Origin: a virus | Lineage: Duplodnaviria; Heunggongvirae; Uroviricota; Caudoviricetes | Strand: one strand, 5' to 3' | IMG/VR virus record: IMGVR_UViG_2778261165_000017 | Coordinates: 1-36,264 of that record | Length of the DNA stretch: 36,264 nt | Shown here: positions 1,307-16,415 of the stretch, in pieces | Position numbering within the stretch: the stretch's first letter is position 1 | How the letters are laid out: every line of letters begins with the position of its first letter | Position numbers and translations under genes: made by a program | Notes under the pieces: generated by a model | Database searches by the model: none | What the model saw: only the letters and a program-made list of their open reading frames with translations | Told to the model about the DNA's origin: nothing

Positions 1307-3787
1307 TTAAAAATCAACCGGATTCGGGATCAGTTTTTGCCAGATTGCTGAAACGTATTTTGCCTGGTGACGGGCGTCATCCAGTGCATTGTGGCGCACG
1401 CCTTCGAATGGAATAACGGTTCTGGCATCAAAGTCGATTGTTTTTCCCAGCTCAACGATTGTGCGTACATCGCGATCGTTGTGGTAGCGCCACGGGCAGG
1501 GGATGTCCAGACGTTCGTATGAGGTGCGCAAAATTGCGTTATCGAAAGTTGCACCATTACCCCATACCTGAACGAATTTTTCATCTGAGTATTCGTTGAT
1601 GAACTCCCGAAACCGCGAAAGGGCATCCTTCAGTTTTACCTGGTCTGTTAAAATGGCTGCTCTGGCTTCACTGGACTGCTTCAGCCACCATTCGATGGCT
1701 CCACCGTCAGGAACAGCCCCTGTATTCATTGCGTCAGTCAGACTGATAACGATATAAAATACTGGCCCGATTTCCCCTGTTTGTGGGTCGAAGAAAACCG
1801 CACCAATAACCACGATGGGCGCATTGGTGTTGGCTCCCATCGTCTCAAGGTCGATCATCAGGTGATACCACGTTTTGCTGGTGGACTTATATTTATGATG
1901 GCCGGTCACCACAATTAAGGGATCTGCCGTCTCACCAGTTTCATTATCGCTGGCGTGGTCCTGAGCGCTGCCAGCATTCTCCTTGTGTGGATGTTCAGCG
2001 CCTTCCATTTCCTCCGGATCATTTTCCTGAACTTCAACCTGATTCTCTTCATCGAATGTTTCCTGGTATGTTGCGTCGCCCATCGCCGCGCCACAATCAG
2101 GGCAGTTGCCGCCACCGCTCTGACCGCAGGCGGTGCAGACTTTTTCCGGTTCCTGTTGCGCTACTGGCTCAGGTTGTTTCGTTTCTGGCTCGTTTTGTAA
2201 CGCATTTTGGCTGTTTTGTTCCGCTTTCTGGTCGTTCTGTTCCGATTCTTGCTGGTTCTGGTTTACAGAATCGCGGGTTTCAATCCCCTTCACCCATTTC
2301 GGATCATTCGGGTCGCTAATCCCTGCAACAAATTCTCCGCGAGAGGCAGCAAGCAACTTATCGGCGTCAGGCTGGCTGATATTGGCTGCCTGCATAATTT
2401 TGTTTACTTCGTCAGCGGTAACTTTTACCGGCTCTGGTTGTGCGGTCGTGTCAGATGCACCAGTATTTTGTTGTGAACCTGAGTACGTGCCGTTTTTACG
2501 GGCAAAATATTCTTCTTTCGTGATTTCAGTAGCCCCTGCAGCCAGCGCCTTATTCAGACCAGAAAGTTTGTTTGCACGACCATATTTTTCGCCATCCTTA
2601 TCGGTGAAGAGGAAGTAGAACGGCCCCTCACGCTCTACAGATGGTTCAGTTTCCAGCGCGCTTTCATTTTTTTGGGTATCAGATACTTCAGTTTCCACTG
2701 CATCAGTTTGTGCTGCTGACGGCTGGAGAATATCAGCAGTGCTCTGGTCTGTTTCTTCATCCTCAAACACGCCCTTTGTCGCCAGGTATTCAGTGATGTA
2801 TTTGTTCAGCGCCACGGGATCTTTGTGAATGTCGATCGGACGCTCACGGACAAGGCCAAAAATAGTCTGACGGTCGTAGCGAACGGCATCAGGTTGTTTG
2901 CGCATTGATGCGGAAATACGCTTCCAGTCTTCGCGATCTTTGTCGATAACTTCATTTTTTGCCCAGCGATGGATGCTGCCGTCAATGTTTCCGGCATCAA
3001 TATCACCAGGCCAGAAAGCGTAGGCCAGTTCTTCATCCAGTGTTTTCCATGTCTGCCTGTATTCGCGACGAATGACAGCAGTTACGGAGTCAGTTTTTCC
3101 TGCAGAGTTTTCAGTGCCTTGCCGGTTGACTCTGGCGCGGGCAAGATCGACGACGGAATTATATGCGCCACCTTCTTTGCGCTCCTTTTCCATGCGTTTT
3201 TTACGTTCGAGAAAATACGCCTGAACGTCGGGCCATTTGGCTGTTGGTTTTAAATCACGTCTGGCATCGTTGATGTACTCAATCTGACGCTCTGGATACA
3301 TGGCGTTAATTTCTCTGGTCCGGATAATTGCTTCAGCGAGGTGTCCATCAAAAGTCGTCATCTCGTCATCGCCGAGAAGCCCGCTTGCATTGATGACCAT
3401 ATCCACGGTGATGTTTTCATGTGTACCGAACCTGACAAGGACAGCAGCCCGCTTGTCGTCAGATAACTGATTAAAGTTAACAGTTTCTGTATCCGGTTCA
3501 GGGTCGACCGGAACAAAGGAAGCCGACTCCTCATTCCAGCGGTTTTCCTGCATATATTCGGAATCCCAGGAATCGAGAGCAGGGCGGGCCATGCCGGGTT
3601 TATCCTCGCAGACAAGAAATTTATAAGCACAGTCCTGAGCTTCCGGGTATTGTTCCAGAAATAACCAGCTAAATTTGGCTCTTGCCCGGCGTTCGTCGCC
3701 TGCTTCAATGGCAGTGGCCACAGGTTTAGCGCCTTCTGCTGTTGCCTGTTCGTCCGGAATGGCGGCGCAAATAAAGACTTTACTCAT
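1307..3787 (-). CDS. Large exonuclease, RecE/YdfE-family N-terminal region fused to a DnaQ-like DEDDh 3'-5' exonuclease domain (826 aa)
   Basis: C-terminus carries LMIDLETMG...GAVFF and HNALDDARH motifs typical of DEDDh exonucleases; central CxxC...CxxC cluster (CTACGQSGGGNCPDCG); N-terminus MSKVFICAAIPDE resembles Qin YdfE as recalled. Confidence 0.75.
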   Translation of the reverse strand: MSKVFICAAIPDEQATAEGAKPVATAIEAGDERRARAKFSWLFLEQYPEAQDCAYKFLVCEDKPGMARPALDSWDSEYMQENRWNEESASFVPVDPEPDTETVNFNQLSDDKRAAVLVRFGTHENITVDMVINASGLLGDDEMTTFDGHLAEAIIRTREINAMYPERQIEYINDARRDLKPTAKWPDVQAYFLERKKRMEKERKEGGAYNSVVDLARARVNRQGTENSAGKTDSVTAVIRREYRQTWKTLDEELAYAFWPGDIDAGNIDGSIHRWAKNEVIDKDREDWKRISASMRKQPDAVRYDRQTIFGLVRERPIDIHKDPVALNKYITEYLATKGVFEDEETDQSTADILQPSAAQTDAVETEVSDTQKNESALETEPSVEREGPFYFLFTDKDGEKYGRANKLSGLNKALAAGATEITKEEYFARKNGTYSGSQQNTGASDTTAQPEPVKVTADEVNKIMQAANISQPDADKLLAASRGEFVAGISDPNDPKWVKGIETRDSVNQNQQESEQNDQKAEQNSQNALQNEPETKQPEPVAQQEPEKVCTACGQSGGGNCPDCGAAMGDATYQETFDEENQVEVQENDPEEMEGAEHPHKENAGSAQDHASDNETGETADPLIVVTGHHKYKSTSKTWYHLMIDLETMGANTNAPIVVIGAVFFDPQTGEIGPVFYIVISLTDAMNTGAVPDGGAIEWWLKQSSEARAAILTDQVKLKDALSRFREFINEYSDEKFVQVWGNGATFDNAILRTSYERLDIPCPWRYHNDRDVRTIVELGKTIDFDARTVIPFEGVRHNALDDARHQAKYVSAIWQKLIPNPVDF

Positions 3788-3867: not shown

Positions 3868-4071
3868 TTACGGTGCTGTTTTAAGTCCTGCCGGGATTTC
3901 GTTATTGTCCATATGAATAACTTTATCGACCGGATAACAGTTACCGGGAATTTTTTGCTCTGCCGCGGCAGTCATGCATTCTTCCATTGAGTCATGTATG
4001 TCAATAACAAGATCAATCGGTTCACCAGAAACAAAAAAAACAGTCAGAACGAGTACAAATGCCGTATTCAT
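3868..4071 (-). CDS. YdfD-like small membrane protein (67 aa)
   Basis: ATGA start/stop overlap with the upstream dicB-like gene; N-terminal hydrophobic helix (AFVLVLTVFFV); position after dicB matches the Qin dicB operon. Start could alternatively be 4080. Confidence 0.5.
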   Translation of the reverse strand: MNTAFVLVLTVFFVSGEPIDLVIDIHDSMEECMTAAAEQKIPGNCYPVDKVIHMDNNEIPAGLKTAP

Positions 4072-4256
4072 TGCCTGCATCCTGTTTGCATCAGACGTAA
4101 ACGGGCCAGCATCGAAACAATGCATATTTTATTTAGCAGTTCCTGTTCGTGTTTTCTTTTATTAATGGCATCTTCAGTAAATATCTGATTGCTGATAGTG
4201 ACACCAATTTCAAAACAACCTTCAGACGTATTAACGTTTGGTAATAACGTTTCCAT
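4068..4256 (-). CDS. dicB: DicB-like cell-division inhibitor (62 aa)
   Basis: Translation METLLPNVNTSEGCFEIGVTISN...KICIVSMLARLRLM matches DicB as recalled (62 aa); GAGGA RBS 9 nt upstream; lies 175 nt downstream of DicF. Confidence 0.7.
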   Translation of the reverse strand: METLLPNVNTSEGCFEIGVTISNQIFTEDAINKRKHEQELLNKICIVSMLARLRLMQTGCRQ

Positions 4257-4430
4257 TATCGCGTCCTCAACAATGAATTTTGTGATGCGGTGCCTGGTGC
4301 CTCCAGGTGACGTTAACCAGTTAACAATTAACGCCGGATACAGAGAATCCACCCATAACACTGTTTTTAGCTTTAACTGTTCCGCGTGCGCTTAGCCGCA
4401 TTCACCGCATCACAAAATTCACTTTAAAAA

Positions 4431-4483
4431 GGGCGGCAGAGCAGTCACGGAGTAAAACTGATACCGCCAAACGCCACCAGAAA
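4431..4483 (-). ncRNA. dicF: DicF small RNA (53 nt) with U-tail at 4426..4430
   Basis: Minus-strand sequence TTTCTGGTGGCGTTTGGCGGTATCAGTTTTACTCCGTGACTGCTCTGCCGCCC followed by TTTTT matches DicF as recalled, with one difference near the 5' end. Confidence 0.75.
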
Positions 4484-4816
4484 ATTGATAACAGAGGGCG
4501 TTGTAGCGGGGTTGTCACTTAAGCGTATGGTCAACCTGACAACCCGGTGTCCTCAACGGGGAAGGAATAACCCCGCCATACTTACCGCCGCGCCATTTCG
4601 CGGAGTGCCACAACCGGAAGCGCACGGTCGACGAAAATTTAACGACAGGCTATCTATGAACCAGCAACCTCGCCGTGCGCTTTCGCGTTATGCTCTGACT
4701 TTTCAGAGAAATATCCTTTCAGTAAACTGTCAGTGCCGGATGTTCACCCGTGTCCGGCGCACGCACTCCACTTCACCCGTGGAGAACTCCTTAATTACCA
4801 ACCCTCAGGAGGGTGA

Positions 4817-5050
4817 ATGTTAAAATCAACTCTTATTGCTAAATGCCTTTATCAAAATCGCATGGTAAGCAGCATTTCAATAGGCGAGTCTGCAGTTAAA
4901 AGTATTTTCGAAGAGTACTTTCCCGGGCATGATTTTAATAAATGGAATACCAAATTACCGCCAGCAGTTTCAACGCGTATTCTGAAAGCAACTGAAAGAG
5001 CAAGTACAATTCGCGTTAACTATTTCATTAAAGATTTGTGGGATCTTTGA
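4817..5050 (+). CDS. Hypothetical protein (77 aa), opposite strand to the dicB operon
   Basis: Strong RBS AGGAGG 4 nt before ATG; low-GC segment; 3' end overlaps the convergent 135-aa gene by 23 nt. Confidence 0.5.
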   Translation: MLKSTLIAKCLYQNRMVSSISIGESAVKSIFEEYFPGHDFNKWNTKLPPAVSTRILKATERASTIRVNYFIKDLWDL

Positions 5051-5435
5051 TATCCACAGAGCCTAAAGTATGTGCATATGGATGTGCTATTGTGCGCCCT
5101 CGCAGATTTGCATCATTTTCTAAATTCACTGAACGAAACAGGGCATCAACAAGGCTCTGTACAATGCAAAGGCAATCGAAGACTGTCGCCGTTTCTGTTT
5201 TGATTGATGAAAGAACATGGCCATTCACGCAAACAGAAATTACCCGTTTATTAACATCGCTTTCCTGCTTTTGATTATCAGAACCATATAGCCCAGAAAA
5301 AGCATTGCGCACATTACGAACCATATTATCGATGGTTTCTTTTTTGGTGTATGCCGGGTCAATTTTCACCAGACTATCACCGAGAGTCGTTGCAGCAATT
5401 GTCTGGATTTCTTTTGGTAAATCTTTAAATTCCAT
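5028..5435 (-). CDS. Hypothetical protein (135 aa)
   Basis: AAGAGG RBS before ATG at 5435; 21 nt downstream of the ydfC-like gene; low GC; no family recognised. Confidence 0.6.
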   Translation of the reverse strand: MEFKDLPKEIQTIAATTLGDSLVKIDPAYTKKETIDNMVRNVRNAFSGLYGSDNQKQESDVNKRVISVCVNGHVLSSIKTETATVFDCLCIVQSLVDALFRSVNLENDANLRGRTIAHPYAHTLGSVDIKDPTNL

Positions 5436-5456
5436 TATTAGCCTCTTGGTTAGCTA

Positions 5457-5675
5457 TTAACGTGGGTATGTAATCATTCTGGCAATGCTTAGTGCCGCTG
5501 CTTTTTCCAGATTGGTGATATCCTGCTCCAGAGCGGACAGATTTTCAGCCTGCTTAGCCCTGGCTTCATTAGCCCATTTCAGATCCTGCGCTGCATTAAT
5601 TTTCTGGCGCATCCACTCATAAAGTTCATCATCGGTATAGTCTGGCGAGATGATGACGGGTTCTCGTTTCTGCAT
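5457..5675 (-). CDS. YdfC-like protein (72 aa)
   Basis: GAGGA RBS 7 nt upstream; length and position match ydfC of the Qin dicB operon; sequence identity not verified. Confidence 0.55.
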   Translation of the reverse strand: MQKREPVIISPDYTDDELYEWMRQKINAAQDLKWANEARAKQAENLSALEQDITNLEKAAALSIARMITYPR

Positions 5676-5704
5676 ACTGATTCCTCGCGGTGCTGCTTCG
5701 CTTA

Positions 5705-5833
5705 TCAGCCGTTAGATTTTGCCGAGCTGGAAAGCGCCTGTTTAAACTCACTGAAGCTGAGAGCTTCTTCGCCTTCGGCAAGGCCTTCGAAGTATTCTTC
5801 GTAAGCCTTTTCCATGATTGTGTCGAAATCCAT
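5705..5833 (-). CDS. YdfB-like acidic small protein (42 aa)
   Basis: Hand-translated ORF MDFDTIMEKAYEEYFEGLAEGEEALSFSEFKQALSSSAKSNG, below the 60-aa cutoff of the ORF track; start 2 nt after the upstream gene stop; length matches YdfB (42 aa). Confidence 0.5.
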   Translation of the reverse strand: MDFDTIMEKAYEEYFEGLAEGEEALSFSEFKQALSSSAKSNG

Positions 5834-5834
5834 A

Positions 5835-5990
5835 TCACTCACCTGAGTTTCTTTCCAGCCAGCGACGGGCACCATTTTCGGTTTTAAACGTTTTGCTTTT
5901 GGTATACGTCATCGCGGTGAATGTGCCGTCCTGGTTGGGAAACACGCCGTACACCAGAGATTCATTGTTGCCAAGATCGATAGTATCCAT
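5835..5990 (-). CDS. YdfA-like protein (51 aa)
   Basis: Internal Met of the 80-aa ORF with GAGG RBS 5-6 nt upstream; 51 aa as for YdfA; the longer form 5835..6077 is possible. Confidence 0.5.
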   Translation of the reverse strand: MDTIDLGNNESLVYGVFPNQDGTFTAMTYTKSKTFKTENGARRWLERNSGE

Positions 5991-6175
5991 GCTGACCTCA
6001 TTTCCCCTTAACGCCGGGGTAGCGGAACTAAAAAACTGCTGCGCTGTTATATAAAGTGTTCCCGCCGTCATGTTCATACGCCTCGGGCTGGCTACTTACC
6101 CCCTGACCACTGCTTGGTAACTCGAAGTATTGCCCGGCGTTCTGTGGGGCGGGGTGGGTTGGTGAAATAAGAATG

Positions 6176-6210
6176 CACTTTTAAAGTTATGATGTCAACA
6201 CTTATAAAGT
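6176..6210. promoter_or_regulatory. Left operator-like repeats (CACTTTTAAAGT and ACACTTATAAAGT) with a TTGACA on the minus strand
   Basis: Motifs are reverse-complement relatives of those between repressor and cro; the TTGACA (minus, 6199..6194) would be a -35 for the leftward dicB-type operon. Confidence 0.45.
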
Positions 6211-6273
6211 TAGATTCATGCAATAAAAAACCGCCTCCATGTGAAGCAGTTTTGTGAAAAAAGAGGAAGGGGA

Positions 6274-6555
6274 TTACCTAGGAAATTGGCGTCTGGCGTG
6301 GGCGACGCTCACAATTTCAATACTTGAAGTGGCCACACGGTACAGAATGATATAGTTAGGGTGAGCTACAATCTCGCGCAACCCAGACACTCTGTCGCTT
6401 GATGGGTATAAGTACGGATGTTCGGATAAAGCTAAAACACATGTCTCAATGCGAATTTTTAGTCTACGTGCGGCATGGAGATTTTCTTTTGCAATATAGG
6501 CTACGATCTGACGTAAATCATCACGCGCAGAAGGTAGCCATAAGATGGGCAGCAT
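6274..6555 (-). CDS. ParE/RelE-family toxin (93 aa)
   Basis: Translation MLPILWLPSARDDLRQIVAYI...YRV...IEIVSVAHARR has the typical ParE/RelE fold signature; start overlaps the antitoxin stop. Confidence 0.8.
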   Translation of the reverse strand: MLPILWLPSARDDLRQIVAYIAKENLHAARRLKIRIETCVLALSEHPYLYPSSDRVSGLREIVAHPNYIILYRVATSSIEIVSVAHARRQFPR

Positions 6556-6746
6556 CACACACTCCCGTTAGTCGCAGAAATTTGGGCAATGAGATTTTCT
6601 ATTTCTGCCATTGCCTCATCATGGGGAATTGCAGGGCGCGGATCTGCAAGACTTGCAGCTACTTTTGTACGCAGCCATTCGTTGTAGCTGTTTTCTTGCT
6701 CAATGGTTTCAAATTCAGAAACTATAGGCGAAAGAGCAGTGTTCAT
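6555..6746 (-). CDS. Cognate antitoxin (ParD-like, 63 aa)
   Basis: Small acidic ORF immediately upstream of and overlapping the toxin; GGAG RBS 8 nt upstream; 30 nt downstream of the repressor stop. Confidence 0.7.
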   Translation of the reverse strand: MNTALSPIVSEFETIEQENSYNEWLRTKVAASLADPRPAIPHDEAMAEIENLIAQISATNGSV

Positions 6747-6776
6747 AACATATCTCCGTTTGGCTTATGATGGCGA

Positions 6777-7184
6777 CTACGCTCGGTGCCCTTTCTGGGC
6801 CGCGAGCCATCTTGCAACAGTGCGATCCATTGACTCTTTTTTGTCTTTCATGTCTTTAAGCATTTGTTCCTGATCTTCCTCTGGAAATGCTCCGAATGTT
6901 TGAAGCAGTTCCCTTTGTCTGGGGCCTATTTTCATGGTATCTGGCACCACAACTTGCTCTTCTTCGCTTGGCGGTAACATAAACCAATACGGGGGAAAGC
7001 CCGTTACGTCTGAAAGTTTATCAAGATTAGCAGTCGATGGACTTGTAATGCCATGAACCCACTTTTGGACTGACTGCTGGGCAACACCTATCCTGCGGGC
7101 TAGCTCTGCCTGCTTAAGTCCTGTTTTTTCCAGCACCAATTTTATTCGGTACGTAGTTATTTCAAGGGTGGTCATTCGCTTCAT
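6777..7184 (-). CDS. Prophage repressor, DicA/RacR-like HTH protein (135 aa)
   Basis: N-terminal HTH (LKQAELARRIGVAQQSVQKWVHG); same length and C-terminal pattern as DicA; divergent from the cro-like gene; no S24 peptidase domain; no obvious SD before the ATG. Confidence 0.8.
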   Translation of the reverse strand: MKRMTTLEITTYRIKLVLEKTGLKQAELARRIGVAQQSVQKWVHGITSPSTANLDKLSDVTGFPPYWFMLPPSEEEQVVVPDTMKIGPRQRELLQTFGAFPEEDQEQMLKDMKDKKESMDRTVARWLAAQKGHRA

Positions 7185-7202
7185 GCATTCATTTTACATA
7201 AA

Positions 7203-7264
7203 AAAAGTGTAACTAGCACAATCAGCTTAAAAGTGTTGATAATATAACTTTAAAAGTGTATAAA
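7203..7264. promoter_or_regulatory. Right operator region: three AAAAGTGT-type sites and a rightward promoter (-35 TTGATA 7236..7241, -10 TATAAA 7259..7264)
   Basis: Sites at 7203..7210, 7226..7238 and 7247..7259; the third lies in the 17-bp promoter spacer. Confidence 0.55.
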
Positions 7265-7291
7265 TCATGGCAATTCACGGGAGTTAACAAT

Positions 7292-7558
7292 ATGCATGAA
7301 TGTTTAAAAAAGAAAATTCACAAAAGAGGGTTATCCCAAGCAGGCGTTGCTCGCTTGATTGGATTGCCGCAACAGGTTGTATCTCGATGGGCTAATGGTC
7401 ATCAGGTTCCTGCGTCAAGGGTTCTACAACTGTGTGAGATTATGCAGTGGGAGGTTACTCCTCACGAACTCCGCCCTGATATTTACCCCAATCCAACCGA
7501 CGGCTTGCCTTCTGAGTTTAAGGCTAACACACAACCAGCTGCGGGAGTTGATTCATGA
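7292..7558 (+). CDS. Cro-like HTH regulator (YdaS-type, 88 aa)
   Basis: HTH LSQAGVARLIGLPQQVVSRW; GGGAG RBS 9 nt upstream of ATG 7292; divergent from repressor. Confidence 0.7.
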   Translation: MHECLKKKIHKRGLSQAGVARLIGLPQQVVSRWANGHQVPASRVLQLCEIMQWEVTPHELRPDIYPNPTDGLPSEFKANTQPAAGVDS

Positions 7559-7980
7559 AAATCAAGCATGAACACATCCGCATGGCGATGAATGCCTGGG
7601 CGCATCCGGACGGCGAAAAAGTACCGGCTGCGAAAATTACCAAAGCGTATTTCGAGCTGGGTATGACGTTCCCTGAACTGCATGACGACAGCAAACACAA
7701 CGCGCTTTATCTCAATACCCAGAAAATTTTCCGCTGGGTAGAGAAAGACACCCCTGATGCAGTTGAAAAAATTCAGGCGTTGTTACCAGCGATCGAAAAG
7801 GCAATGCCACCTTTGCTGGTGGCCAGAATGCGCAGCCACAGTTCAGCTTATTTTCGGGAGCTGGTGGAGACGCGGGAGCGACTGGTGAGAGACGCTGATG
7901 ATTTTGTCGCAGTGGCAATCGCCGGTTTCAATCAGATGAACCGTGGTGGCCCGGCAGGAAATTCTGTGGCAGTACATTGA
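7555..7980 (+). CDS. YdaT-like protein (CII-position, 141 aa)
   Basis: Starts MKIKHEHI as YdaT of Rac is recalled to; ATGA overlap with the cro-like gene. Confidence 0.55.
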   Translation: MKIKHEHIRMAMNAWAHPDGEKVPAAKITKAYFELGMTFPELHDDSKHNALYLNTQKIFRWVEKDTPDAVEKIQALLPAIEKAMPPLLVARMRSHSSAYFRELVETRERLVRDADDFVAVAIAGFNQMNRGGPAGNSVAVH

Positions 7981-8051
7981 CTGACAATAGCCATATCGAA
8001 TCGCTTCCGGCAACTCGTGAGTAAAAAGATTCGGTATCAGAAGAGGTGAGT

Positions 8052-9098
8052 ATGGCTAACGCCTGGCTCAGATTATGGCATGACATGCCAAACGATCCTA
8101 AGTGGCGAACAATTTCCAGGGTGTCAGGACAGCCAATCGCAACAGTGATGGCTGTGTATATCCACCTCCTGGTGAGCGCGTCACGAAATGTCACGCGAGG
8201 TCACATTGATGTCACGACAGAAGATTTGGCAAGTGCGCTCGACGTGACAGAAGAGGTAATTGATTCAATTTTGCAGACGATGCAGGGGCGGGTACTTGAT
8301 GGTGATTTAATCACTGGATGGGAAAAACGCCAGGTGCTTAAAGAGGACAACGGCAATATTTCGCAAACCGCAAAATCTCCTGCAGAGCGCAAGAGGGCGC
8401 AGCGAGAGAGGGAAAGAAAGCGGGAACAAAATGGCGATTGTCACGGAGCGTCACGAAATGTCACGCACATGTCACGGCAAGTCACGACAGATAAAGATAC
8501 AGATAAAGATACAGATAAAGAAGATCAAAACACTATGGTCCATGGCGTAAAAAACGCCACGAACCAGGCAGGGGATGTTCAGACCGTCAATCCTGGTCAG
8601 CCAGCAGGCACGACACCGGAAGCCGATTCGGGCGCTGTGCAGCAGGTGATGACCGCAAGGCCGGAGCAATCGCACCCACTGCAGCAGCCTGAAGCCGATT
8701 CCGCCATTCAGCGGGAAGCCGATCGGGTAGTCCCGGAAAAAAACGGGCAGTCTGTGGGAAGAGTGGATTATCCGGATGTGTTCGAACAGGTCTGGCGGGA
8801 GTACCCGTTGCGTGCCGGGGCAAACCCGAAGAAATCCGCTTTCAGTGCCTGGAAGGCCAGATTACGCGAGGGGGTGCCACCAGAGGCCATGCTGGATGGC
8901 GTGAGGCGTTACGCAAGATACCTGGCGGCTACCGGGAAAACGGGAACGGAATTTGTTCAGCGAGCGACGACGTTTTTGGGACCGGACCGGAATTTTGAGA
9001 ACCCCTGGTTGCTCCCGGTAAGCGGCACGAACAACCAGCGTTGTGTGAATCATATTTCTGAACCTGATACAGAAATTCCGCCTGGTTTCAGGGGATAA
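8052..9098 (+). CDS. Replication initiator (O-analogue) with origin iterons inside its coding sequence (348 aa)
   Basis: AAGAGG RBS 5 nt upstream of ATG 8052; position after cro/cII-like genes; gene contains nine GTCACG repeats at helical spacing. Confidence 0.65.
   Translation: MANAWLRLWHDMPNDPKWRTISRVSGQPIATVMAVYIHLLVSASRNVTRGHIDVTTEDLASALDVTEEVIDSILQTMQGRVLDGDLITGWEKRQVLKEDNGNISQTAKSPAERKRAQRERERKREQNGDCHGASRNVTHMSRQVTTDKDTDKDTDKEDQNTMVHGVKNATNQAGDVQTVNPGQPAGTTPEADSGAVQQVMTARPEQSHPLQQPEADSAIQREADRVVPEKNGQSVGRVDYPDVFEQVWREYPLRAGANPKKSAFSAWKARLREGVPPEAMLDGVRRYARYLAATGKTGTEFVQRATTFLGPDRNFENPWLLPVSGTNNQRCVNHISEPDTEIPPGFRG
8178..8216. repeat. Iteron cluster 1: GTCACG/GTCACA at 8180, 8190, 8200, 8211
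   Basis: Direct repeats at 10-11 bp spacing counted in sequence. Confidence 0.7.
8440..8522. repeat. Iteron cluster 2 (GTCACG at 8440, 8450, 8460, 8471, 8481) followed by a 12-bp tandem repeat ACAGATAAAGAT x3 (8487..8522)
   Basis: Direct repeats at 10-11 bp spacing; exact 19-bp duplicate GCGTCACGAAATGTCACGC at 8178..8196 and 8448..8466; A+T-rich tandem repeat immediately downstream. Confidence 0.7.
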
Positions 9099-9138
9099 GT
9101 GTTGATTTCAGGTCATGAGGTAATTTTAAGGAGGACTT

Positions 9139-9561
9139 GTGGTAAAAGTTTTTACACAAGAAGAGCGAGAAAAAATTAAAGGGCAGGTTGTTGAGCTAGT
9201 ACGCCGGAGTGGGCGCGAGACGCTACGGCAACTGGAATCCAAGACAGGTGCGACAAGATATCTGATCAGCGTTCTCGCCAGAGAGCTGGTTGCCAGTGGC
9301 GATATATACAACTCTGGTTACGGGTTATTCCCGTCTGAACAGGCGCGTAAGGACTGGCAAAATGCCCGTAAAAAGCTCTCAAGGGCAAAGCTGAAGAAAC
9401 CATCTGCGGTTGATCCGGACCTTATCTGGTCATTACCAGACGGAGAAATACGTCGCTACGACAGGCGTATGAACATAATCTGTCGCGAGTGCCGGAGAAG
9501 TGAAGTTATGCAGCGCGTGCTGGCGTTCTATCAGGGGAATTTTCAGGAGGTGATGCTGTGA
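9139..9561 (+). CDS. Hypothetical protein (140 aa)
   Basis: AAGGAGG RBS 4-5 nt before GTG start; translationally coupled to the next gene. Confidence 0.6.
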   Translation: MVKVFTQEEREKIKGQVVELVRRSGRETLRQLESKTGATRYLISVLARELVASGDIYNSGYGLFPSEQARKDWQNARKKLSRAKLKKPSAVDPDLIWSLPDGEIRRYDRRMNIICRECRRSEVMQRVLAFYQGNFQEVML

Positions 9562-10046
9562 GTACACCGGCAACCATTCTTGATATGTGCTGTGGCAGCC
9601 GTATGTTCTGGTTCGATAAGAATGACGACCGGGCGATATTTAGCGATATCAGAAAGGAAGAGCATACATTGTGCGATGGGCGACGCCTGATTATTAGCCC
9701 TGACCTGATAGCAGATTTTCGTGCATTACCATTTGCAGACGCAACGTTTCCGGTTGTTGTATTCGACCCTCCGCATCTTGAGCGTATTGGTGATAATGCC
9801 TGGATGGGAAAGAAATATGGACGGCTGAATAAAGATACCTGGCGTGATGATTTGCGGCAGGGATTTAAAGAAGCCTTTCGTGTGTTGTGGCCACATGGCG
9901 TTCTGATTTTTAAATGGAATGAAACGCAAATATCTGTCCGCCAGATATTGGCACTGACCGACGTGAAACCAATCATCAGCCAGCGCACTGGTAAGAACGA
10001 TAAAACACATTGGATTATTTTTATGAAGGAGGCAACCAGTGGGTAA
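9558..10046 (+). CDS. Phage Dam-type N6-adenine DNA methyltransferase (162 aa)
   Basis: DPPH motif (DPPY/F/H class) and N-terminal CCGSRMF SAM-binding-like motif; AGGAGG RBS 7 nt before GTG start. Confidence 0.65.
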   Translation: MSTPATILDMCCGSRMFWFDKNDDRAIFSDIRKEEHTLCDGRRLIISPDLIADFRALPFADATFPVVVFDPPHLERIGDNAWMGKKYGRLNKDTWRDDLRQGFKEAFRVLWPHGVLIFKWNETQISVRQILALTDVKPIISQRTGKNDKTHWIIFMKEATSG

Positions 10047-12972: not shown

Positions 12973-13127
12973 TTTTATATTGGCGAGGTGACGGGAGTTA
13001 AGTAGAATTGCTGCGGGTGCTTGAGGCTGTCTGCCTCAGGCATGAACACCAAAAGGCAGATAGAGAAAAGCCCCAGTTAACATTACGCGTCCTGCAAGAC
13101 GCTTAACATTAATCTGAGGCCATATCT

Positions 13128-13340
13128 ATGCTCTACACACGTAGGTTAGCCTCTTACGTGCCGAAAGGCAAGGAGAAGCAGGCTATGAAGCAGCAAAAGG
13201 CGATGCTAATCGCCCTGATCGTCATCTGTTTAACCGTCATAGTGACGGCACTGGTAACGAGGAAAGACCTCTGCGAGGTACGAATCCGAACCGGCCAGAC
13301 GGAGGTCGCTGTCTTCACAGCTTACGAACCTGAGGAGTAA
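13128..13340 (+). CDS. mok: Mok-like in-frame extended reading frame (70 aa)
   Basis: In-frame N-terminal extension of hok, like MokC (69 aa) as recalled. Confidence 0.5.
   Translation: MLYTRRLASYVPKGKEKQAMKQQKAMLIALIVICLTVIVTALVTRKDLCEVRIRTGQTEVAVFTAYEPEE
13185..13340 (+). CDS. hok: Hok/Gef-family type I toxin (51 aa)
   Basis: MKQQKAMLIALIVICLTVIVTALVTRKDLCEVRIRTGQTEVAVFTAYEPEE is near-identical to HokC/Gef as recalled; AAGGAG RBS. Confidence 0.85.
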   Translation: MKQQKAMLIALIVICLTVIVTALVTRKDLCEVRIRTGQTEVAVFTAYEPEE

Positions 13341-14844: not shown

Positions 14845-15210
14845 ATGACTGAACGCATAGAATTTGTTTTGCCTTACCCGCCAACGGTGAACACTTACTG
14901 GCGTCGTCGTGGCAGCACATATTTTGTATCAAAAGCCGGGGAGCGTTATCGCCGGGCAGTGGCGCTTATTGTTCGCCAGCAGCGGCTGAAATTAAGCCTG
15001 TCCGGAAGGCTGGCAATAAAAATTATTGCAGAGCCACCGGATAAGCGCCGCCGCGACCTGGACAATATCCTGAAGGCACCACTGGATGCGCTGACGCATG
15101 CCGGACTTCTCATAGACGACGAGCAGTTTGATGAAATCAATATTGTGCGCGGACTGCCTGTTCCTGGTGGTCGGCTGGGGATAAAAATCACAGAACTGGA
15201 GTGCGCATGA
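14845..15210 (+). CDS. rusA: Holliday junction resolvase RusA (121 aa)
   Basis: Motifs YPPTVNTYW, DKRRRDLDN, GGRLGIKITE align with RusA as recalled. Confidence 0.85.
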   Translation: MTERIEFVLPYPPTVNTYWRRRGSTYFVSKAGERYRRAVALIVRQQRLKLSLSGRLAIKIIAEPPDKRRRDLDNILKAPLDALTHAGLLIDDEQFDEINIVRGLPVPGGRLGIKITELECA

Positions 15211-15896
15211 ATAACCAGTATTTACAGTTTGTGCGTGAGCAGCTCATTATCGCTACCGCTGATTTGAGTGGGGCAACAAAAGGTCAGCTTGAAGCCTGGC
15301 AGGAGAATGCCATGTTTGATACAGGGCGTTACAGGCGTAAAAAAATCCGGTACCGCGATGAAGTGACTGGAAGAATGATAACGCGGGATAGTCCACCGAT
15401 ACCGGGAAAACAATCACTGGCGAAAGGCTCATCAATTGCTCTGGTAAGTCAGGTTGAGTTTTCGACATCATCATGGCGACGGGCAGTTCTGTCTCTTGAA
15501 GAACTTCATAAAGCCTGGTTGTTGTGGTGTTACAGCGGGAGTATTTATTGGGAATATCAGATCGCGATAACACAGTGGGCGTGGAATGAATTTAATGCTC
15601 AATCCGGTACCAGAAAAATTGCAGGGAAAACGCAGGAACGCCTGAAAAAATTAATCTGGCTGGCGGCGCAGGCAGTAAAAGCAGAACTTTTTGGTGGGGA
15701 AGGTTATGAATACCAGGAGCTGGCATTACTGGCGGGAGTGACAACTAAAAACTGGTCAAAAACATTTACTCGTCACTGGGTTGCAATGAAACACATTTTT
15801 CACCGACTGGATAGTGAGGCTTTATTGTTTGTAATGAGAACACGTTCAAAACAAAAGACGGCATTTTCAAAGCAAAGTGTTGCAAAAGTAGATTGA
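15207..15896 (+). CDS. Late-gene antiterminator Q-like protein (229 aa)
   Basis: ATGA overlap with rusA; lies immediately upstream of a strong promoter plus terminator and the lysis cassette; family not sequence-verified. Confidence 0.6.
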   Translation: MNNQYLQFVREQLIIATADLSGATKGQLEAWQENAMFDTGRYRRKKIRYRDEVTGRMITRDSPPIPGKQSLAKGSSIALVSQVEFSTSSWRRAVLSLEELHKAWLLWCYSGSIYWEYQIAITQWAWNEFNAQSGTRKIAGKTQERLKKLIWLAAQAVKAELFGGEGYEYQELALLAGVTTKNWSKTFTRHWVAMKHIFHRLDSEALLFVMRTRSKQKTAFSKQSVAKVD

Positions 15897-16105: not shown

Positions 16106-16181
16106 GGCCCTTTAGCTCAGTGGTGAGAGCGAGCGACTCATAATCGCCAGGTCGCTGGTTCAAATCCAGCAAGGGCCACCA
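16106..16181 (+). tRNA. tRNA with CAT anticodon, Ile2 (lysidine)-like / Met-type
   Basis: Cloverleaf folded by hand; 7-bp acceptor stem GGCCCTT/AAGGGCC; anticodon loop CTCATAA; closely resembles E. coli ileX as recalled; CCA encoded. Confidence 0.85.
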
Positions 16182-16182
16182 A

Positions 16183-16259
16183 CCGCCACTAGCTCATCAG
16201 GAAAGAGCGTCAACCCTTTAAGTTGAGTGTGCGAGGTTCGAGTCCCCGGTGGCGGTCCA
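16183..16259 (+). tRNA. tRNA-like gene with atypical anticodon loop CCTTTAA (anticodon TTT if canonical, C at position 33)
   Basis: Perfect 7-bp acceptor stem CCGCCAC/GTGGCGG, perfect 5-bp anticodon stem, T-loop TTCGAGT with one A-C mismatch in the T stem; CCA encoded. Confidence 0.55.
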
Positions 16260-16261
16260 GT

Positions 16262-16337
<76 letters not shown>

Positions 16338-16340
16338 TAT

Positions 16341-16415
<75 letters not shown>

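Follow-up and report, generated by a model that had tools for sequence, protein, structure and literature searches.

A dicF gene in a probable Qin-type dicBF cassette of an Escherichia coli lambdoid prophage

Lambdoid prophages are well documented as carriers of dicF and dicB, both in several copies per genome and in functional phages (PMC5069750, PMC10448788, PMC7873438). In E. coli K-12, DicA represses the promoter dicBp, and DicF is processed out of a polycistronic transcript, RNase III generating the 5' end of a 190-nt species and RNase E that of the 53-nt RNA; some transcripts are inferred to stop at dicF and others to extend beyond it by read-through (PMC10448788). An RNase III-generated DicF species of 72 nt has also been described (PMC5069750). 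The 3' part of K-12 DicF pairs with the ribosome-binding site of ftsZ and its 5' end with xylR, in an Hfq-dependent manner, and regulation of ftsZ, xylR, and pykA in trans has been proven for the K-12 allele by means of compensatory mutations (PMC5069750). Moreover, EHEC strains carry up to four copies of dicF (PMC5069750; PMC7873438), and the functional temperate phage mEp460_evo81 carries dicB, dicF, dicAC, and rem (PMC10448788). The DNA analyzed here, referred to as the window, is a stretch of 36,264 nucleotides (IMG/VR record IMGVR_UViG_2778261165_000017), and its minus strand bears a locus that is very probably dicF in a Qin-type dicBF cassette forming the early-left operon of an E. coli lambdoid prophage, an operon whose derepression would be toxic through the mechanism proposed below.

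The first-pass annotation of this DNA had recognized on the minus strand, in the interval 4426..4483, a sequence nearly identical to DicF followed by a U tract, and alignment of the reverse complement of that interval to DicF bears this out. The 53-mer 4483..4431 coincides at 52 of 53 positions with the annotated dicF of E. coli K-12 MG1655 (b1574, NC_000913 1649382-1649434), the sole change being A10G, which places a G at window position 4474. The Rfam search (cmscan) returned DicF (RF00039) at 4431..4482 on the minus strand with 76.4 bits, well above the gathering score of 48 (E = 2.4e-15, computed over the whole window), covering model positions 1-52 of 52, and the 11 pairs of the consensus structure are all standard in the window DicF, with zero non-standard pairs flagged, leaving the conserved stem-loops as expected. 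The two-tier 3' stem-loop of the Rfam consensus structure, DicF nt 16-52 (4468..4432, minus strand), constitutes the terminator hairpin and is followed by the U5 tract of the intrinsic terminator (4430..4426), so that 4426..4483 comprises DicF plus its U tract. Because the Rfam threshold is passed and the sequence is nearly identical to that of an experimentally characterized K-12 gene, the sRNA can be named DicF and, as judged from the sequence, 4431..4483 (minus strand) is a bona fide dicF gene and an ordinary intact copy. Only two points of the locus are slightly unusual, namely the rare G10 allele and a 0.64-kb two-gene insertion upstream of the leader.

The seed for pairing with ftsZ, singled out for verification in the first-pass annotation, lies within DicF nt 24-53, a region identical to that of K-12, and the predicted duplex spans ftsZ -28..+1 with an energy of -27.9 kcal/mol. 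When the energy of this duplex was compared with that of shuffled sequences over the whole molecule, 267 of 1000 shuffles were at least as stable, a non-discriminating outcome; the shuffle test was thus dropped, and the case for ftsZ pairing relies on identity with the experimentally validated pairing region of K-12. At the other end of the molecule, the xylR seed (nt 5-16) is predicted to form 12 contiguous pairs with xylR +9..+20. In this duplex, the A10-U pair is replaced by a G10-U wobble, which weakens the predicted duplex by 0.6 kcal/mol (-16.1 instead of -16.7 kcal/mol).

DicF is preceded, downstream of the operon's first genes, by a GC-rich, non-coding leader (4484..4816, minus strand), which represents the precursor segment and is 96% identical to the ydfC-dicF interval of K-12, out of which DicF is processed (PMC10448788). 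Together, leader, dicF, and spacer form an interval of ~580 nt, from about 4803 to the start of dicB, that is 96% identical to the ydfC-dicB interval of K-12. The GC content of 4484..4810 is 0.51-0.57 vs. about 0.39 in the flanks, and the upstream leader segment folds with -154 kcal/mol (z = -3.2), none of 100 shuffles being as stable, all in keeping with the earlier description of 4484..4810 as a GC-rich and hairpin-rich stretch fitting a processed precursor. The non-coding character of the leader follows from the MG1655 annotation, since this most thoroughly annotated genome has zero genes between ydfC and dicF. Two ORFs overlapping the leader, one of 112 aa on the plus strand (4485..4823) and another of 36 aa across it on the minus strand, were considered as genes and rejected, being unannotated in MG1655 and inconsistently called "hypothetical" in phage records.

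Within the leader, an inverted repeat at 4615..4685 on the minus strand (arms 4615-4627 and 4673-4685; 13 nt, 92% complementary) lies in a long irregular helix of the minimum free energy fold and constitutes a candidate RNase III substrate for the 5' end of the ~190-nt DicF. According to the published sizes (PMC10448788), the cut giving that species would be expected about 137 nt upstream of DicF, near 4620. In a covariation analysis of the leader (76 distinct sequences, mafft and RNAalifold), the core was nearly invariant and contained zero compensatory changes, informative variation being confined to a long-range stem between dicF and dicB. Serving as an RNase substrate may not be the only role of the nearly constant 60-200 nt of leader that precede DicF, although a further one seems unlikely.

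The long-range stem encloses the dicF-dicB spacer (4274..4421, minus strand; arms 4403-4421 and 4274-4292) and is an inverted repeat of 19 bp with 100% complementarity. Its 5' arm starts about 10 nt past the U tract, and the position of the stem thereby matches the reported RNase III-generated 72-nt DicF; a cut at this candidate RNase III site would give the 3' end of such a species (53 + 19 nt) and free the dicB mRNA. The stem is kept across 60 distinct homologues through wobble and double changes. Thus, one of its pairs is C-G in 43 homologues, U-G in 14, U-A in two, and a non-pair in one, and the neighboring pair is G-C in 33 and G-U in 27; at both variable pairs K-12 has the wobble versions, whereas the window has the Watson-Crick ones.

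The spacer (4224..4433, minus strand) also matches the full 206-position model of Rfam STnc100 (RF02076), with which it shares the enclosing long-range helix and the motifs GGUGAAU...CACC-GGAGGCACC-GGCACC; however, its 39 bits are below the gathering score of 47, and membership is not established. Probably, the two are diverged versions of one 5' UTR, STnc100 possibly representing the equivalent dicB-type 5' UTR of other enterobacterial prophages.

The 62-aa DicB-like ORF reported earlier downstream of DicF is confirmed as dicB, a cell-division inhibitor gene located at 4068..4256 on the minus strand, by a Pfam match (PF05358, 132.5 bits) and 87% identity to K-12 DicB; the distance from the 3' end of DicF to the dicB ATG, previously given as 175 nt, is 174 nt, the same length as in K-12. 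It is overlapped by a ydfD-like gene (DUF1482; 3868..4071, minus strand) whose product is 78% identical to K-12 YdfD and matches Pfam PF07358 with 82 bits, and whose K-12 homologue is annotated as a lysis protein. Farther downstream, an intact exonuclease gene (1307..3787, minus strand) encodes 826 aa with a C-terminal Rv2179c-like 3'-5' exoribonuclease domain (Pfam PF16473, 228.9 bits); the counterpart found after ydfD in K-12, ydfE, is an annotated pseudogene, and phage ON470580 has the gene broken into two parts.

The first genes of the operon are ydfA (5835..5990), ydfB (5705..5833), and ydfC (5457..5675), all on the minus strand, identified by tblastn with the K-12 proteins at 100%, 100%, and 98.6% identity, respectively, with a DUF1391 Pfam match among them. 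Thus, the cassette is ordered ydfA-ydfB-ydfC, two inserted ORFs, leader, dicF, dicB, and ydfD. The insertion relative to K-12 Qin (4817..5435, 0.64 kb) is placed between ydfC and the leader and consists of a 135-aa ORF (5028..5435, minus strand) and a convergent 77-aa ORF (4817..5050, plus strand), both absent from K-12 Qin, of unknown function, and assigned to the PHROG families phrog_1363 and phrog_10348. The shorter ORF overlaps the 3' end of the longer one by 23 nt, and E. coli strain PK8241 annotates both genes as hypothetical proteins. Situated between PL and dicF, the convergent 77-aa ORF could interfere with read-through to dicF.

The candidate early-left promoter PL, the analogue of dicBp, was located at 6170..6210 (minus strand) from its sequence and an operator motif; it combines a -35 hexamer TTGACA (6198..6193) and a 17-nt spacer with a weak predicted -10 hexamer, CATTCT (6175..6170). 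On the plus strand, the OR/PR region (7224..7264), recognized on the same grounds, has TTGATA (7236..7241), a 17-nt spacer, and TATAAA (7259..7264), and PR drives a cro-like gene (about 7292..7558, plus strand) that shows a YdaS/HTH match and corresponds to an 88-aa regulator annotated in a matching genome. In addition to this divergent cro-like gene, the immunity module includes a CII-like/YdaT gene. Owing to its strict requirements for hexamers and loops, the scan for consensus promoters and terminators missed PL, PR, and the DicF terminator; all three were located by hand, and the promoters also by the operator motif.

This motif, the 13-mer ACTTTAAAAGTGT with up to two mismatches, occurs at four sites in the 36-kb window vs. 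0.73 expected, and these sites are found exclusively at PL (6175-6187 and 6198-6210, minus strand) and PR (7224-7236 and 7247-7259, plus strand), 23 bp apart in each pair and oriented with transcription. At each promoter the distal operator abuts the -35 hexamer and the proximal one fills the 17-nt spacer; moreover, a 35-nt inverted repeat, 86% complementary, joins 6173-6207 and 7227-7261. The repressor itself, a 135-aa HTH protein of DicA-like architecture (6777..7184, minus strand), matches DicA over its full length (29% identity, E = 3e-15), and its only Pfam domain is HTH_3, without an S24 peptidase domain. Since the layout of operators and promoters is that of PL/PR in lambdoid phages and of dicBp/dicCp in Qin (PMC10448788), silencing of the operon by the prophage repressor through shared operators is supported, and the repressor would bind at the paired sites. 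The first-pass annotation had made silencing depend on an adjacent repressor; the control part of that claim is upheld by the shared operators, whereas the adjacency is not, because the repressor gene lies 2.3 kb upstream of DicF and is separated from it by a RelE/ParE pair, ydfA-ydfB-ydfC, and the two-gene insertion.

The RelE/ParE-family toxin (94 aa) and its 63-aa partner (6274..6746, minus strand) lie between the repressor gene and PL, in the position that lambda gives to rexAB, and are probably co-transcribed with the repressor in the lysogen. The repressor is of a different immunity type, as its identity to DicA is only 29%. In addition, tblastn of the window with K-12 DicC and Rem gave zero matches to either protein, so that DicA, DicC, and Rem are not found together here, and the architecture is the same with another immunity specificity. 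PHROG assignments on nearby ORFs included no antirepressor, and a LexA-box pattern gave three one-mismatch matches vs. 1.08 expected, an unconvincing excess.

Homology to K-12 Qin sets in sharply at about 40 nt before the ydfA start codon, the joint being within 5980..6030; therefore, the promoter and operators come from a different immunity module, and the cassette from ydfA to ydfD behaves as a portable module without a promoter of its own, which joins different immunity regions at this point. Strain PK8241 has a 100% identical dicF region with a different immunity region, and the exact mosaic of this immunity region and this cassette was absent from 5426 complete E. coli genomes, in which the best coverage of 5000-9100 was 80%. 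Conversely, E. coli Z1323CEC0010 (L133, 1..6813, compared with window 5832..9098) has the same immunity region, 94.3% identical, joined to a Rac-type kil/ydaE/recE early-left operon. The same immunity region thus drives a kil-type inhibitor elsewhere, which shows that division inhibitors are exchanged as modules.

By analogy with K-12, the locus would operate as follows. In the lysogen, the DicA-like 135-aa repressor (6777..7184) would occupy the paired operators over PL (6170..6210) and PR (7224..7264) and keep the operon nearly silent. A lapse in repression would yield a polycistronic PL transcript, whose leader helix would be cut by RNase III near 4620 and then trimmed by RNase E to the 53-nt 5' end at 4483, and two routes could produce the 3' end: transcription could stop at the intrinsic terminator formed by the DicF hairpin and U5 tract, or RNase III could cut the 19-bp stem of transcripts that have read through. 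Mature DicF would then pair, together with Hfq, with the ribosome-binding site of ftsZ (through nt 24-53) and with xylR (through nt 5-16), blocking translation, and transcripts passing the terminator would supply YdfD and DicB, which with MinC would block assembly of the FtsZ ring; DicF, DicB, and YdfD together would make the operon toxic on derepression. The processing steps, that is, those of RNase III and RNase E and the formation of the 3' end, are transferred from K-12 experiments on a 96%-identical sequence, and the expression, processing, and toxicity of the window copy are likewise presumed from K-12. With DicF and DicB intact in a repressor-controlled lambdoid operon, the earlier proposal of a conditional host-killing locus in the early-left operon is endorsed, its toxicity being attributed by homology.

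The G10 allele raises the question of whether this copy behaves as that of K-12. Exact 58-nt matches to it occur in 30 of 3959 matching E. coli records, and it is present in four of about 130 loci. In the free 53-mer (ViennaRNA), G10 lets nt 6-12 pair with nt 46-52, so that the predicted optimum passes from the canonical fold of -15.9 kcal/mol (A10) to an alternative of -18.5 kcal/mol (G10), the canonical stem has an ensemble probability of 0.00 instead of 0.99, and the predicted unpaired fraction of the 5' seed drops from 0.85 to 0.34. Such refolding could weaken the targets of the 5' seed. The allele might accordingly be a functionally altered or partly disabled DicF, with a sequestered seed, a reshaped loop, and a target range or Hfq handling that differ from those of K-12, an option that appears unlikely. 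Nevertheless, the refolding is a thermodynamic prediction only, amounting to a difference of 2.6 kcal/mol; even in the alternative fold the RNA terminates with a hairpin and U tract, and the fold of the full precursor retains the canonical hairpin in spite of G10. Moreover, G10 can still form a wobble pair with the U of xylR, the bases pairing with ftsZ are unchanged, and the presence of the allele in at least three different upstream contexts speaks against a decaying pseudogene. A related idea, equally doubtful, is that A10G acts as a natural structural switch that hides the xylR-type 5' seed while ftsZ repression and termination stay intact, thereby narrowing or shifting the target range of DicF in this prophage lineage.

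The DicF hairpin could also be viewed mainly as a terminator in cis, a tL-type gate in an early-left operon lacking N, in which case the RNA would be a by-product with little activity in trans. This reading seems highly unlikely, although several features agree with it: a GC-rich hairpin with a U5 tract lies in the middle of the operon, upstream of dicB, ydfD, the exonuclease gene, xis, and int; the scan found no other terminator-like site on the minus strand between PL and dicF; transcripts of both kinds, ending at dicF and reading through it, have been inferred in K-12 (PMC10448788); and ydfA is the first ORF after PL, with no N-like gene. Given this absence of an N-like gene, the DicF terminator probably also meters the expression of dicB, ydfD, the exonuclease gene, xis, and int, alongside the role of the RNA in trans. 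However, a role in cis and one in trans are compatible and do not exclude each other, and a terminator needs only the stem and the U tract, whereas the most conserved bases of the locus are those acting in trans (nt 5-16 and the loop, nt 23-35), apart from the compensatory-mutation evidence for regulation of ftsZ, xylR, and pykA by the K-12 allele (PMC5069750). It is extremely improbable, finally, that a degenerating prophage has left here only an inactive relic, dicBF-like in sequence but devoid of expression and function. Qin of K-12 is certainly cryptic and many copies reside in defective prophages (PMC5069750), yet here the sRNA, terminator, processing helices, dicB, ydfD, ydfABC, promoter, operators, and repressor are all intact, the 36 kb display a complete lambdoid layout from int to tail with replication, Q, lysis, terminase, portal, capsid, and tape-measure genes, and the lambdoid genes around the locus match phage records at 92-95%. 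An intact dicF in a repressor-controlled dicBF operon is thus the preferred interpretation.

Among 5426 complete E. coli genomes, 4734 contain matches to the 781-nt region, at a median of two places per genome and up to 10. The locus is also present in 59 phage records, Stx2a-converting and PPompW phages with 97.8% identity among them, and in at least 120 IMG/VR loci. When the DicF core pattern was searched in one genome per species, it was found only in Escherichia, Shigella, one Salmonella, and three metagenome bins. These bins, which contain the exact core (L009, L010, and L011), are labelled Veillonella parvula, Proteobacteria bacterium, and Collinsella sp., and most likely represent Escherichia prophage contigs that were mis-binned. 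The left boundary of homology varies among copies, falling at window positions 4817, 4803, 4781, 4763, or 4692; with the exception of the Salmonella locus, all copies retain 165 nt or more upstream of DicF, and most of them 209 nt or more.

Across 109 loci, whose selection through an exact match within DicF biases the contrast, nucleotide diversity amounts to 0.016 for dicF and 0.041 for the spacer vs. 0.19 for dicB and 0.26 for ydfD. In the 50-nt leader bin that starts 59 nt upstream of DicF it is 0.009 for the same 109 loci. With values of 0.009-0.016 against 0.19-0.26, the RNA parts are the most constrained, and conservation is far higher in the non-coding parts than in the coding genes beside them, among loci chosen within DicF.

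Other regions of the prophage contain elements of interest. A hok/sok-type toxin-antisense module at 13015..13337 on the plus strand matches Rfam sok (RF01794) with 117.8 bits at 13015..13190 and includes an ORF (13185..13337, plus strand) 100% identical to K-12 HokD; it is a second conditional host-killing element of the same prophage. Four tRNA genes (Met-CAT, Lys-TTT, Thr-TGT, and Gly-TCC; 16106..16415, plus strand) are situated just downstream of a Q-like ORF (15201..15896), and the related phage record ON470580 has three of the four, without Lys-TTT. The interval 9139..10046 (plus strand), just downstream of the replication gene, encodes a Ren-like exclusion protein (phrog_142) together with a DNA methyltransferase (phrog_954).

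Identification of the locus flags the prophage as a carrier of DicF/DicB, a repressor-silenced pair regulating cell division and metabolism, and has little weight beyond annotation. Much is already known about the pair from work on K-12 and EHEC, and most E. coli genomes contain it. As in the kil systems of lambda and Rac, the small toxic inhibitors directed at FtsZ are placed in the PL operon and silenced by the prophage repressor; however, the Kil protein is unrelated to DicB in sequence, and an sRNA is not involved. The resemblance to EHEC O157:H7, Stx, and other lambdoid phages resides in the position of dicF-dicB in the early region of larger and less decayed prophages; inspection of parts of the window revealed no stx genes.

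The closest system is the dicBF locus of K-12 Qin. The window shares with it 52 of the 53 positions of the sRNA, 96% of the leader-dicF-spacer sequence, the 174-nt gap between dicF and dicB, the gene order from ydfA-ydfB-ydfC to dicF-dicB-ydfD, the terminator, and the RNase III helices, as well as a 135-aa HTH repressor of the non-cleavable kind, whose gene lies upstream on the same strand and is accompanied by a divergent cro-like gene. By contrast, the window differs in its A10G allele and in the 0.64-kb insertion (orf135 and the convergent orf77) between ydfC and the leader, and its immunity module is distinct, with a repressor 29% identical to DicA, a cro-like gene without a DicC match, a RelE/ParE pair between the repressor gene and PL, no Rem, and a different promoter and different operators. 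Moreover, its exonuclease, xis, and int genes are intact, whereas those of Qin are pseudogenes.
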